Of a DNA stretch of 64,000 nt, positions 53,287 through 57,388 are shown in pieces. The stretch covers positions 730,662 through 794,661 of the forward strand of contig OY759724.1 of the NCBI GenBank assembly GCA_963662715.1. The letters are read 5' to 3'. Numbering within the stretch: position 1 is the first letter of the stretch; each line of letters starts with the position of its first letter. Source of the stretch: Candidatus Omnitrophota bacterium. GTDB lineage: Bacteria > Omnitrophota > Gorgyraeia > Zapsychrales > JANLHA01. Below the pieces are notes generated by a model. It was not told the origin of the DNA. It worked only from the letters and a program-made list of their open reading frames with translations, and made no database searches. The translations under genes and the position numbers were made by a program.

Positions 53287-54240
53287 CTATTGTTTTGCCA
53301 GGAGCTGCCGGGTTATATCGACCGCTGATTTCAGCACATACTCCGCAGCACGTCTGTTGGTATGATACCCTGATGTCCTTGTTGTTCTTTGCCGGATCAC
53401 CAAAACAGTAACGTCATTCTCGGATTTATGCTCCAGGGTGAGTCCCCGGGGGGGATTCCGGATATGGTCCTTCATGTCATGAAAAAACCGGGAGGACTTT
53501 GCGATAAGCACACAATACAAATACGGATAATCGGTGCCCTGAACGGTGTTCATGGAAATCTGAACCTGCAGCCCTAAGAATTCTTTCGGCGCAGGGAAAA
53601 ATCTCAACATAAGCCGGGCATCCGTAGGGACCTTTTTGCCCTCTTTTGTCCTCCGGGTCGCCAGCATCGGCAGAACCTGCACGTCACTGGGCGCAGATAA
53701 AAACCGCATCATACCTTCCAATAATTTTACTTTTATAATCAGCCGGTCCTTTTTCAAAAAATCCCGGACCCCGACAAACCAATGCGGGGCAAAAACCACG
53801 GCCGAATCCCACGCCCAATAGCCTGCCAGGACCTCATTTCCCTGCATCACAAAATGGAACCAGACAGCAGCACAGCCCAACGCACATCCCGCGAAACAGG
53901 CAACGCCCAAGGGATTCGTGATATCGAAACAATCCAGGTCCCACTGCTGCAGTTGTTTTTGTTTAAGCTGAATCTTTTGATATTCATCCGGCGTGACCTG
54001 GGACCAGTCCTCCGGCCCCCTGACCGATGGACGGGCCGAATAGCCTTTGATCAGAGTCAGCCCTGTCGCAAAGGCCAGAAACGCCAGACCCAGCCAGAAA
54101 TTGATAAACAGCTGCGCCGTAAGTCCCAGCCCGAAAAGCGCCAAAACAATCTTTATGCGCAATAAATAAGGCCAGCTTTTTGCGAAAAGAAAATGGATAT
54201 CCCCCTGTCGCTGAGGATCAGGAAAAAGTTTCACGAACAA
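53287..54240 (-). CDS. hypothetical membrane protein (third gene of rSAM/SPASM operon)
   Basis: 317 aa, N-terminal TM helices; start overlaps rSAM stop by 10 nt (translational coupling). Confidence 0.5.
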   Translation of the reverse strand: MFVKLFPDPQRQGDIHFLFAKSWPYLLRIKIVLALFGLGLTAQLFINFWLGLAFLAFATGLTLIKGYSARPSVRGPEDWSQVTPDEYQKIQLKQKQLQQWDLDCFDITNPLGVACFAGCALGCAAVWFHFVMQGNEVLAGYWAWDSAVVFAPHWFVGVRDFLKKDRLIIKVKLLEGMMRFLSAPSDVQVLPMLATRRTKEGKKVPTDARLMLRFFPAPKEFLGLQVQISMNTVQGTDYPYLYCVLIAKSSRFFHDMKDHIRNPPRGLTLEHKSENDVTVLVIRQRTTRTSGYHTNRRAAEYVLKSAVDITRQLLAKQ

Positions 54241-55562
54241 ACCTCCGTCGCTAAAGGTTCCAAAAGCTCCTGATAGCCGACCTGCCGCCAGTATAAGGGA
54301 CAGCCTCCGTTACAGACAGCCAGATCCCGGCAACCCTGACACCGTTCATGGGCGAAACGCTTCTGCTGGAAATACTGAAAAGGCGGACTGCTCCAGAAGG
54401 TCTTAAACCGCCCCTTCATCTCTAAAATATTCCCCATCGGCTGAGGATAGCTGGAACAGGGCAGAATATCTCCGTTAGGCGCGACACTCAATAATCCGTC
54501 ACAGGCGGCACAGCCTCTGTTGCCCAGACCGTGGACAATGGGATTAAAAATGCATAAAGGGGTCGGAGAATACCACATGAATTCTAGCCCCATCTCTTGG
54601 GCTTTTTTCTGTACGGATAAAACCGTGTCGCCGATCTCCGAGTAAGTCACAAGAATATCCGGCAAATTCAAAACCGCGGCCCCTTCCGGCATCAGCATAT
54701 TCATGGAAAATTTATCTACGCCCAAACTCTTCACCAGAGGAAGGATGGCCAATAAGCTCCCTTTATTCAAGGCAGAAACCGTTGTATTCGTATGCACCCG
54801 TATCCCCGCCTCTTTCAAATTTTTGAAACCGGACAGGCTTTTATGAAAAGCCCCTTCGCTCTGCACGATCTTATCGTGTAAGACCGCGTCCCCGGCCTCC
54901 AGGCTCACCTGGGCAGAATCAAGGCCCGCTTCTTTGTAGCGGGAAGCCTGATCCTGGGTTATCAACGTTCCGTTGGTGATGAGGTTCGTCCACATCTTCA
55001 GCGATTTCGCATAAGAAATCAGCTCCGGCAGGTCCGGCCTGAGTGTCGGCTCGCCGCCGGTAAAACTCACGGAAGGGACTTCGGCTTCCTGTCTGATGAT
55101 CGCAAGTATCTCCTTAATCTGCTCCGTATCGTGCTCCCGGGACCCGGAGTCTTTACGGCATCCGCACGACGCATAACAAAACCGGCAGGACAAGTTGCAC
55201 CTATAGGTCACGGCGATTTCGCTCAGCACCGGAAGAGTGTTAAAAGGGAGCTGAAAGGGATATTGTTCCACCGCCTTCCGCTCGCCCTGCTCATGGTAGC
55301 ATCCTTTTAATAAAGCCAGCAGGTCGCAAAAGAAAAAATGCAAATCCCGGGACACCCGCTCCCTGTCGGGATAACGGTTAATAATCGTATAAATACTTTC
55401 TCCTGACAGAAGAGCTTTTAATACTCTGACCCCGGACTCATTGATTTTATGCGCTTCATTGGGAATCTTGATGAGAAGATTGTCGTACTCCCGGACATGA
55501 ATATACGGGGCCACCCCCTTTATATACTGATCAACCCATTGGATATGCGAATAATAATCCAT
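54231..55562 (-). CDS. radical SAM / SPASM-domain peptide/protein maturase
   Basis: Start taken at MDYYSHIQ (ATG 55560-55562, AGGGAACGAG RBS); CNLSCRFCYASC (Cx3Cx2C); C-terminal Cys-rich SPASM region GCAACDG...LPCSSYP...CQGCRDLAVCNGGCP. Confidence 0.8.
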   Translation of the reverse strand: MDYYSHIQWVDQYIKGVAPYIHVREYDNLLIKIPNEAHKINESGVRVLKALLSGESIYTIINRYPDRERVSRDLHFFFCDLLALLKGCYHEQGERKAVEQYPFQLPFNTLPVLSEIAVTYRCNLSCRFCYASCGCRKDSGSREHDTEQIKEILAIIRQEAEVPSVSFTGGEPTLRPDLPELISYAKSLKMWTNLITNGTLITQDQASRYKEAGLDSAQVSLEAGDAVLHDKIVQSEGAFHKSLSGFKNLKEAGIRVHTNTTVSALNKGSLLAILPLVKSLGVDKFSMNMLMPEGAAVLNLPDILVTYSEIGDTVLSVQKKAQEMGLEFMWYSPTPLCIFNPIVHGLGNRGCAACDGLLSVAPNGDILPCSSYPQPMGNILEMKGRFKTFWSSPPFQYFQQKRFAHERCQGCRDLAVCNGGCPLYWRQVGYQELLEPLATEVCS

Positions 55563-55576
55563 CTCGTTCCCTGCTG

Positions 55577-57259
55577 TTAGTGTCCGCTGCTGACACAAGC
55601 GCCGTGACAGGCGCCATGGCATGCGGAATGACATGCCGAATGGCATGCGGAATGACACGCCGAATGACATGCGTCATGACAGACATTCTGCAAAAACGGC
55701 CCTTCATAACAGACGGCCGTATTCCGGAAGGAGGAGAAGCCTTCCTTCACCTGCGGCAGACTTTGTTCAAACGAACGTCCGACGTCCTGGCTGTTTCGGT
55801 AATAATCCCGGTCATGATAATAGGGACGGCCGTGATAATGGTCGTAATATCCGTCCCAATAATGACTGTGATCTGTCTCTTGACGGGAAAGGCTTTTTTC
55901 TCTCTCCAGATCTTTCTGCATCCGCTTCTTATAATAAGCCTTCGTGGCTTCCAGGTCGCAGTCCCAGGCCTTTTGTTCAACTCCGGCGGCTATCGTGTGA
56001 AACAGATCATTCACATATGACTGCGGAATATCCCCATACATATCTATGGCCGTAAAAAGGTTGTTCTCATAAGGGTCTTCACTGCCGGTCGCCGCCGGGA
56101 CCCGTTCGAGCTTTAAGGGATCACGGCTGATGACATGAATCAGCCCTTTCCGTTCCAGGTTCTGAATCATGAGCCCCGCCAAAGTCCCCAAGGGAAGATC
56201 TAAGAGCAACCCGGCTTCAATGGGCGTCAGGGTCTTACAGATTTTCCCTTTCTTGCGAAATGATCCCAGCTGGATTTTGGGAGGGGTCCATTCCTCTCCA
56301 TCCCATTTGATAGGATCAATACCGTCCTGGGCCGCCAGCATGGAAATATGTTTCCGCGTCATAATCAAGAAAGGGACCCCCATCAGGACCACCACGGACA
56401 AAAGAATAAAAGATATAAGCCCTCCAAAAGACAGCGGCACAACCGACAGAACACTGCCGGGGAAGAAGCGGTTAAGAATGTATTTTTCTTCGGCCTTTTG
56501 GAATCCCGGTGTTTCGGCCCAGGGCCGGGCCGGGGCCATTGTCTGCAGATTAAAATAGGACGCATCCAGATACGTTTGTATCTGGAAATGATACCGTTTT
56601 TGAAGGTTATTCCGGTGGAAACGGACGGTCAGGACATTCTCTCCGCTGGCATTCTCTGCGGTCGGGTAGTCGATAGAGTACTCTCGGTTGACATATTTTT
56701 CCGTCATGAATTTCAGAGACGACAAAAGATCGGACGTGACTTCTGAGCCGGTCAAGACAACAGGGTAATGGACCGTCACGGTTTGGTGATCCAGGGCATC
56801 GCTCCACTGCACCGGCGCCCAGTTCAAAACAGCCAGCCGGCCGTGATCACTCTCTGTTTGGGTGACATTCCCGCTCTGCTGCAGATCCGTTTCGTAGTGA
56901 AAAAAGTACGTGATGTCCCCGTCATGGAAAGCCTGCCCGTTGGCGAGGATGATATCATATTTGCCGGGGGAAAGGTATTTGATCTCTAAAGGGTACTGCC
57001 TGCCGGACTGATCAACGGCAAAAGCCTCATCATAATTAAAGCGGGGTGTCCCGGCAAAACCTTCGAAATAAAAACCGTGAAGATTGGCGGAGTGGCAGGA
57101 CCAGCGTACAGCGTAGGCCACCTGCGCTTTGCCGTCCTGGTCCAGGACCAGGTCAACCTCAGCCCAGCGCATTTGAAAATGACCGGCCCATAGCGGTGAG
57201 GCAAACACGCACAGGGAAAGAACAACGAGGAAAGAAAATAATATTTTTTTTCTAAACAT
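55577..57259 (-). CDS. single-pass membrane protein with His/Tyr-rich cytoplasmic region and C-terminal (Cys-His-x-Ala)x7 repeat tail; candidate substrate of adjacent rSAM/SPASM enzyme
   Basis: Signal peptide [26 protein letters not shown] (alternative upstream ATG at 57289); TM helix mid-protein; tail [36 protein letters not shown]; stop 15 nt before rSAM start. Confidence 0.7.
   Translation of the reverse strand: [560 protein letters not shown]
55583..55670. repeat. 12-nt tandem repeat (about 7 units, catgcggaatga-like) encoding the Cys-His-x-Ala tail
   Basis: Direct inspection: catggcatgcggaatgacatgccgaatggcatgcggaatgacacgccgaatgacatgcg. Confidence 0.8.
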
Positions 57260-57388
57260 GGGGCTTGCGTCTCGTTTTGACAATGTCATTATTATACCGG
57301 CCCCGCCTTTCCGTGTCTAGCAGTCATCCCAAAACCTGTGCGGGACCGGCCCAAGCCCGGGAAGACAGAATAAAACCCCGGCCGCTAT

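Follow-up and report, generated by a model that had tools for sequence, protein, structure and literature searches.

In a 64,000-nucleotide (nt) stretch of DNA from Candidatus Omnitrophota bacterium (assembly GCA_963662715.1, contig OY759724.1, positions 730,662-794,661 of the forward strand; hereafter the window), three consecutive minus-strand genes encode a large membrane protein that ends in a ladder of Cys-His-x-Ala (CHxA) units, a radical S-adenosylmethionine (SAM) enzyme with a SPASM domain, and a third protein that also spans the membrane. We refer to the first of these as the tail protein. An earlier note on this DNA had proposed that the enzyme modifies the Cys-rich tail of its neighbour. 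No Pfam or NCBIfam family below the superfamily level holds any of the three proteins.

The genes are closely packed. The TAA stop of the tail protein is separated from the ATG of the radical SAM gene by 14 nt, not the 15 nt given in the earlier note. That note also had the third gene overlapping the radical SAM stop, which is correct, but the overlap is most likely 4 nt (GTGA) rather than 10 nt. The GTG start at 54234 is favoured because the identical database protein, P0140, has 315 amino acids (aa), and the 10-nt overlap holds solely for the TTG that opens this open reading frame (ORF). The upstream flank of the operon carries a strong promoter-like site ending at 57291 and, because of this position and because homologues begin with MKK, the tail protein probably starts at the ATG at 57259, which would give a protein of 560 aa.

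From its N-terminus, the tail protein consists of a signal-like helix, an extracytoplasmic β-sandwich, a transmembrane (TM) helix, a winged-helix-like domain, an aromatic/His-rich linker, and finally seven CHxA units followed by CVSSGH and the stop codon TAA. Hydropathy and an AlphaFold2 (AF2) model with a predicted local distance difference test (pLDDT) score of 78.7 agree on a signal-like helix at the N-terminus and on one TM helix further along (residues 288–324 in the model, which also shows the winged-helix-like domain and further helices), and bear out the earlier description of a 560–570 aa protein with a signal peptide and one TM helix. The 24-residue His/Tyr-rich stretch reported with it is likewise found in the sequence. 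Because the signal peptide and one TM helix precede the tail, and the radical SAM enzyme has no hydrophobic or TM segment by hydropathy, the tail should lie in the cytoplasm, on the same side of the membrane as the enzyme. The C-terminal part of the protein places eight or nine Cys residues at an exact four-residue spacing, each followed by His-x-Ala, and a conserved segment, F-x-x-F-R-x-S-x-x-C-Y-E-G, stands directly before the repeats. At the DNA level, Tandem Repeats Finder reports a period of 12 nt (55605..55681; 6.4 copies, score 84) together with a 24-nt super-period (score 104), in agreement with the reading of the tail as (Cys-His-x-Ala)x7 encoded by a 12-nt tandem repeat.

The window copy of the tail protein matched no family model in Pfam or NCBIfam, including matches with E values up to 10 and scans of individual members. 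Among its homologues there are weak N-terminal matches to DUF2207 (PF09972), for example P0012 with 24.1 bits against a cut-off of 24.4, and the domain after the TM helix of P0013 matches TIGR04222 'near_uncomplex' (E 2.9e-5). The protein may therefore be a remote DUF2207-like carrier. A distant DUF2207-like protein, P0019, ends in a CACACAG tail; its gene lies at a contig end.

The three genes form a strictly conserved module. We searched a profile of the radical SAM enzyme against the GTDB species, each represented by one genome, and examined the best 80 of the 448 relatives that were confirmed. These 80 are 48–73% identical (the family as a whole is 48–74% identical across phyla) and come from Omnitrophota, Elusimicrobiota, Armatimonadota, Sumerlaeota, Hydrogenedentota, Planctomycetota, Lentisphaerota, Kiritimatiellia, Nitrospiraceae, Bacteroidales, WOR-3, Spirochaetota, Firestonebacteria, Auribacterota and Abditibacteriota, about 15 phyla in all. 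A tail protein is encoded directly upstream of the enzyme in 77 of the 80 loci, and in the other three the radical SAM gene sits at a contig edge. Co-occurrence of the repeat tail with this enzyme family, which the earlier note had named as a check, is thus found in 77 of 77 assessable loci, well beyond what chance would give, with the tail absent from none of these orthologous loci. The third gene is present in all 80, and the median gap between the tail protein stop and the radical SAM start is 11 nt. Loci collected through the tail protein gave the same picture: all six with downstream sequence read tail protein, radical SAM/SPASM enzyme, third gene, in surroundings that were otherwise unrelated (one more, L006, ends too early and stands outside the six).

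When ORFs of at least 90 aa were clustered over the 80 loci, these three families alone were shared, and no small ORF was conserved near the module. A hidden small precursor peptide can be rejected on these grounds, which leaves the tail as the one Cys-rich candidate for a substrate that is universal. In about 19 of the 80 loci, all from one lineage (Elusimicrobiota; L023, L025 and about 17 others), the trio is followed closely downstream by NifU-like and NifS-like (cysteine desulfurase) genes; this adjacency is probably lineage synteny and is suggestive of an Fe-S link. The conserved neighbours in a similar number of loci include genes for an ACT-domain protein and an ABC-F ATPase.

The tail is far better conserved than the protein that carries it. 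All full-length homologues end in (CH[DSGNT]A)n-CVS[SGA]G..H. Across the 77 species with a visible upstream gene, the unit opens with Cys in every case (100%); His occupies the second position in 98% (Phe or Tyr in the rest), and Ala the fourth, also in 98%. Position 3 varies (Ser > Asp > Gly), and its order along the tail, D-S-S-S-S-G-G, is conserved. The number of units is eight in 45 species and seven in 30, which leaves one species with five and one with three, so that 75 of the 77 have 7–8. The tail closes with an invariant CVSSGH or CVSGG(A/S/G)H. The median identity to the window is 94% for the tail (31 residues anchored at CVS) against 48% for the rest of the protein. Furthermore, 14 sequences that share identical 34-aa tails have a third-codon identity of 0.49, and because this value is low where the protein is identical, it is the peptide that is kept constant and not the DNA that is homogenised. 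These figures indicate that the tail is under strong purifying selection. A more distant clade has irregular units at the start of the tail (ACHSACYVHTACHDA, CFVHSAC), with H-x-A-C kept.

Several variants of the tail were also seen. Bacterium UASB270 (L089:~5000-6625) has the form (CHSA)n-CVSGGGGSSGGGGASGGW, in which the Cys-His ladder is followed by a Gly/Ser-rich end as is typical of ordinary tails of the DUF2207 type; in this locus, one finds the best match to the third protein some 3 kb further downstream than usual. The family variants P0264 (600 aa) and P0265 (843 aa) have CHH(V/A)CH units in the tail, and the extracytoplasmic domain of P0265 is apparently duplicated.

The enzyme belongs to the radical SAM/SPASM superfamily, as the earlier note had read from its Cx3Cx2C core and Cys-rich C-terminus, with matches above cut-off to both PF04055 Radical_SAM (102.8 bits, 3e-29) and PF13186 SPASM (34.2 bits, 3e-8). 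In an alignment of 18 family members, numbered here by the window copy, the cysteines of the CX3CX2C motif (C122, C126 and C129) are invariant, as are the patterns C354-x9-G-x4-C369 and C408-x2-C411-x5-C417-x3-C421. Four further cysteines are invariant: C133 and C135, which make up an unusual extra CxC, and C337 and C351. This brings the tally outside CX3CX2C to ten, with none conserved after the SPASM CX3C. Because the CxC adjoins CX3CX2C and no conserved Cys follows the CX3C, ligation of the auxiliary clusters may be unusual. We had considered the Cys count as a guide to an open ligand site on auxiliary cluster I, which would favour thioether formation, but with ten invariant Cys it does not decide the matter.

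None of the NCBIfam equivalog cut-offs was reached by the enzyme. Its best match was NirJ2 (142.2 bits, cut-off 500), with AhbD (135.8, cut-off 500), NirJ (125.4, cut-off 515), PqqE (121.6, cut-off 381), MftC (93, cut-off 265), rSAM_ACGX (TIGR04340; 85.7, cut-off 400), StsB (81, cut-off 625) and HxsC (80.5, cut-off 268) also among the matches, together with MoaA. Cyclophane-synthase models such as YhhB were not among the 25 best NCBIfam matches, that is, they scored below 73.7 bits. We can thus place the enzyme neither with NirJ/AhbC/AhbD, as no tetrapyrrole genes are conserved nearby in the 80 loci, nor with the PqqE and mycofactocin maturases, for which there is no PqqA- or MftA-type precursor and no conserved small ORF. 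Classification with hidden Markov models, another check named in the earlier note, hence puts it in no characterised family unrelated to protein modification, and all cofactor-family scores are far below cut-off. In a profile search, the nearest solved structures were SkfB (E 3.5e-25), PqqE, BlsE, GDGT-MAS, SuiB, TigE (8VPO; aligned to residues 41–422 of the family profile) and CteB (1.5e-15), the majority of which are peptide-modifying SPASM enzymes. The N-terminal ~105 aa are probably a peptide-binding domain of the PqqD type, similar to the recognition element (RRE) of ribosomally synthesised, post-translationally modified peptide (RiPP) enzymes: PF05402 PqqD matches this region in eight of the 18 members (best E 1.1e-4), and precomputed PF05402 matches exist for five homologues.

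The third protein was modelled with four TM helices, arranged as two hairpins, and a cytoplasmic α/β domain with an apparently secretion-chaperone/YbjN-like fold (the fold of type III secretion class I chaperones is defined by the order α-β-β-β-α-β-β-α). In the loci collected through the tail protein its length is about 320–345 aa, compared to 315 aa in the window. No Pfam or NCBIfam family was found for it, again including matches with E up to 10 and per-member scans.

We consider it reasonably likely that the trio is a membrane-associated protein-maturation module in which the radical SAM enzyme modifies the tail, and the tail is very probably its substrate. The central proposal of the earlier note is thereby supported by the co-occurrence, the selection on the tail and the SPASM relatives of the enzyme, while actual modification stays at the level of inference. 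The tail protein would hold its β-sandwich outside the cell, cross the membrane once and present its C-terminal part in the cytoplasm. There the soluble radical SAM enzyme, translationally coupled to the tail protein, would dock through its RRE-like N-terminal domain on the segment before the repeats, and 5'-deoxyadenosyl radical chemistry would run processively along the tail, modifying each CHxA unit once. The third protein may serve as a four-TM anchor, whose chaperone-like domain could either hold the extended tail or tether the enzyme at the membrane. The product, a rigid Cys/His ladder that is crosslinked and/or binds metal, would remain part of the membrane protein.

Two chemistries appear the most likely, each with a characterised precedent. 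One would be a thioether of the sactionine or ranthionine type that joins the Cys sulfur to a residue nearby; the invariant Cys suggests it, as do the similarity to SkfB and CteB and the precedent of QhpD for a protein substrate. The other would be a cyclophane between His-C2 and Ala-Cβ on each His-x-Ala triad, which is suggested by the invariance of this triad and the precedent of HaaB. A bolder extension, which we regard as rather unlikely, is that the tail is a new protein-derived cofactor, in which 7–8 identical crosslinks of either type, made by the enzyme, order the Cys/His ligands for a chain of metals or clusters to give a 'rod' for redox or metal handling at the membrane's inner face. 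If true, such a membrane complex would be common to about 15 mostly uncultivated phyla.

Several observations weigh against modification of the tail as set out here. We infer it from gene context alone, as we do the identity of the substrate, the roles of the RRE-like and chaperone-like domains, the chemistry and the topology, the cytoplasmic placement being deduced from sequence features; the gene anatomy, the co-occurrence, the selection on the tail and the domain folds were observed. A Cys/His-rich tail could bind metal without being modified. AF2 draws the tail as a helix with pLDDT <50, a confidence too low to count as structural support. The enzyme reaches the cut-off of no curated peptide maturase, and its top NCBIfam matches are the heme-related NirJ2 and AhbD, likewise far below theirs. 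For the RRE-like domain, PF05402 matches the window enzyme (residues 35–81) below the gathering score with an E value of 0.26, and a PDB profile search with this domain alone gave spurious matches to HIV protease and the RRE protein TfuB1 at E 0.99, which leaves an RRE unconfirmed.

A second set of proteins bears on this question. Searching 1.84 billion representative proteins by phmmer with the tail alone, we found, besides fragments of the family, small proteins (P0274, P0279, P0285, P0291 and P0296; 117–230 aa) with (CHxS)n tails that end in CHGSRGWR or CHGSRARR. Two of them have signals with the paired arginines of the twin-arginine translocation (Tat) type. The start of the P0285 gene is overlapped by 8 nt by a radical SAM/SPASM-like gene of 339 aa with CDLRCKHC towards the N-terminus and CIQCEWQKSCRNGCP towards the C-terminus, which is unrelated to the window enzyme beyond the common core, and a second radical SAM gene (CNAACTYC) lies downstream; the context of P0291 is a 908-bp contig. 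These small proteins, with the radical SAM genes that flank P0285, look like a separate, undescribed Cys-His-repeat system. Two distinct radical SAM lineages thus adjoin Cys-His-repeat tails on non-homologous carriers, which favours a radical SAM target over an incidental metal-binding tail and suggests a wider class of Cys-His-repeat modification. The loci in question are on metagenome contigs (L092:1086-2451 and L093:939-2189), and unannotated genes of 223 and 233 aa also adjoin P0285. Three other proteins, P0263, P0284 and P0287, contain long (CY[DGS][SAIV])n repeats and match TIGR04114, only P0263 (23.2 bits) exceeding the 20-bit cut-off; they appear to belong to the classical Cxxx-repeat class, with Tyr in place of the His of the window.

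The alternative to which we give some weight, although we think it unlikely, is that the tail binds metal, Fe-S clusters or a cofactor without being modified, with the radical SAM enzyme acting on the bound cluster or cofactor, for which the tail would be a scaffold, or on some other substrate. Cys and His are classic metal ligands, every other position of the tail is a small residue and, on a helix such as the low-confidence one drawn by AF2, CxxxC, HxxxH and AxxxA would each align on one face. The best NCBIfam matches of the enzyme (NirJ2, AhbD, NirJ, PqqE and MoaA) are cofactor enzymes, but these matches lie far below cut-off and mostly cover the radical SAM core only, and peptide substrates are what an RRE-like domain and the nearest solved structures point to. 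The NifU/NifS genes next to the trio also speak for this alternative, yet they are limited to one lineage. Tat-like signals are typical of exported proteins loaded with cofactor, and their presence on the small CHxS-tail proteins would fit such a role. However, the 98% Ala at position 4 and the fixed D-S-S-S-S-G-G order are hard to explain by ligation alone. A heme-related variant, in which the tail is a series of overlapping CX3CH sites resembling those of heme c and a NirJ/AhbD-like enzyme attaches or processes tetrapyrroles in the cytoplasm, seems very improbable to us. Cys-His-x-Ala-Cys-His does read as C-X3-C-H, and the best NCBIfam matches are tetrapyrrole-modifying radical SAM/SPASM enzymes, but at 125–142 bits against cut-offs of at least 500. 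Attachment of c-type heme takes place outside the cytoplasm via dedicated systems, and no such system is conserved with the trio in the 80 loci. Motifs two residues apart are sterically implausible for hemes, and the invariant Ala would be left unexplained.

A radical SAM/SPASM enzyme with an RRE-like domain beside a Cys-rich repeat is also the usual signature of a RiPP pathway, in which the membrane protein would act as a giant leader (or carrier) and cleavage would release its modified tail as a peptide. Database fragments of the family down to 88–132 aa could be taken in the same sense, but these short matches correspond to the C-terminal region of full-length members and are apparently partial gene calls. 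We judge this reading improbable: the 80 loci share only the three genes, with no protease, exporter or immunity gene among them, the extracytoplasmic and cytoplasmic domains of the carrier are themselves conserved, and the CVS(S/G)G.H end is invariant, whereas RiPP cores usually vary far more over some 15 phyla. Finally, we see a negligible chance that the tail lacks a specific function and is an artefact of slippage or low complexity. The DNA is indeed a 12-nt tandem repeat, and DUF2207-type proteins such as P0019 often end in low-complexity sequence, but the near-invariance of the peptide over about 15 phyla, the scrambled synonymous sites and the fixed repeat number rule it out.

As a maturation module, the trio most resembles the predicted Cxxx-repeat targets (TIGR04117 Syntroph_Cxxx, TIGR04114 tSAM_targ_Cxxx and PF27846), which also have a Cys at every fourth residue in a C-terminal repeat and are paired with a radical SAM enzyme. 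The tail falls outside these models: against TIGR04117 it scores 14.9 bits alone and 9.3 as part of the whole protein (cut-off 50), against TIGR04114 7.2 bits (cut-off 20), and PF27846 gave no match in a local Pfam scan and a 'faint' precomputed match on P0012. The TIGR04117 targets are small, to judge from the 98 positions of the model, whereas the carrier here is a membrane protein of about 560 aa, and here the unit is strictly C-H-x-A and followed by the invariant CVS(S/G)G.H end. To our knowledge, the Cxxx-repeat systems are bioinformatic predictions with no published chemistry. The earlier note had called the combination unlike any described system. No description of this module was found in the literature, but the idea of a radical SAM target with Cys at every fourth residue had already been curated. 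What is already known, then, is a Cxxx repeat beside a radical SAM gene; what is new is the large membrane carrier, the invariant C-H-x-A, the dedicated third membrane protein and the wide phylogenetic spread.

Among enzymes with characterised products, the triceptide synthases HaaB and HtkB are radical SAM/SPASM enzymes that join an aromatic residue to the Cβ two positions on, and HaaB forms a crosslink from His1-C2 to Ala3-Cβ on HAA motifs (PMC11499958). Every unit of the tail similarly holds a His-x-Ala with a variable middle residue, and the irregular units CYVHTAC and CFVHSAC keep H-x-A-C. However, the invariant Cys plays no part in triceptide chemistry, and the substrate here is a membrane protein and not a short precursor. 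The sactipeptide and ranthipeptide synthases and QhpD, also radical SAM/SPASM enzymes, form thioethers from Cys sulfur to carbon, in the case of QhpD within the subunit of a protein and not in a RiPP (PMC10114670). Among the solved relatives of the window enzyme SkfB ranks first and CteB also matches, but the relationship is remote, and the tail has neither a separate acceptor half nor a CxxxD/E motif. TigE and TvgB have tandem repeat motifs as their substrates (PMC10878394), and they share with the ACGX-repeat, His-Xaa-Ser and Cys-every-fifth systems the arrangement of one radical SAM enzyme acting, or predicted to act, on short tandem repeats. The TvgB, TigE, ACGX and HxsC systems differ from the window in their repeat sequences and known chemistries, for example cyclopropylglycine formation; the tail reads ACH(S/D/G) and not ACGX, which sets it apart from the ACGX-repeat system. 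The architecture of the carrier (signal, β-sandwich, TM helix, cytoplasmic domain and low-complexity tail) is that of DUF2207 (PF09972)/TIGR04222 proteins. Typical DUF2207 genes pair with LemA (PMC12631010), in contrast to the radical SAM partner here, and their tails are Gly/Ser/Cys-rich compared to (CHxA)n.

Nearly all known radical SAM/SPASM maturases act on short RiPP precursors. As the module includes neither a protease nor an exporter, a modified tail would stay with its membrane protein for good. At least 80 species keep the module strictly, with matches in several hundred, and it reaches Nitrospirota, Bacteroidota and Lentisphaerota. Two of its three proteins are without any family assignment, and it gives a functional lead for one branch of the large DUF2207-like family. 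Furthermore, the tail offers a near-invariant repetitive substrate for finding radical chemistry on Cys-His-x-Ala units.

Table 1. Positions of the module and its nearest neighbours in the window.
Feature	Position	Strand	Remarks
Promoter-like site TAGACA-17-TATAAT	57291..57319	(-)	Consensus scan only, 11/12 matches
Tail protein gene	55577..57289	(-)	ORF of 570 aa
Tail coding stretch	55580..55681	(-)	CHxA x7 at 55598..55681, CVSSGH at 55580..55597, then TAA
Radical SAM/SPASM enzyme gene	54231..55562	(-)	443 aa, ATG at 55562
N-terminal domain of the enzyme, ~105 aa, probably RRE/PqqD-like (peptide-binding)	55248..55562	(-)	PF05402 matches in family members
CX3CX2C radical SAM cluster motif (C122, C126, C129)	55176..55199	(-)	Invariant alignment columns
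Extra CxC (CYAxCGC; C133, C135)	55164-55175, enzyme residues 130-133 onward	(-)	Invariant columns
SPASM auxiliary-cluster region (Cys 337, 351, 354, 369, 408, 411, 417, 421)	54300..54554	(-)	Alignment and Pfam SPASM
Third gene, 315 aa	53287..54234	(-)	GTG start within GTGA, shared with the radical SAM stop
DUF1294 gene	52889..53209	(-)	Pfam E 1.7e-21; 77 nt downstream of the third gene

The DUF1294 gene does follow the trio, as the earlier note had said, but it is absent from the 80 related loci and is not part of the conserved module. On the same grounds we rejected as members a divergently transcribed B12-binding radical SAM gene (57515-59179, plus strand, 554 aa), whose best matches, HpnJ and ApyD, are both far below cut-off, and a gene for a protein with a PEP-CTERM sorting signal (51848-52669, minus strand, 273 aa), neither of which is conserved with the trio. 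A further gene at 59309-61081 (plus strand) encodes a multi-TM protein with C-terminal TPR repeats and a weak PrsT match; together with the PEP-CTERM gene it hints at an exopolysaccharide- or exosortase-related neighbourhood. The window also contains five giant minus-strand ORFs, at 7808-13663 (1951 aa), 15080-19741 (1553 aa), 19779-28091 (2770 aa), 42080-45655 (1191 aa) and 46650-51500 (1616 aa).

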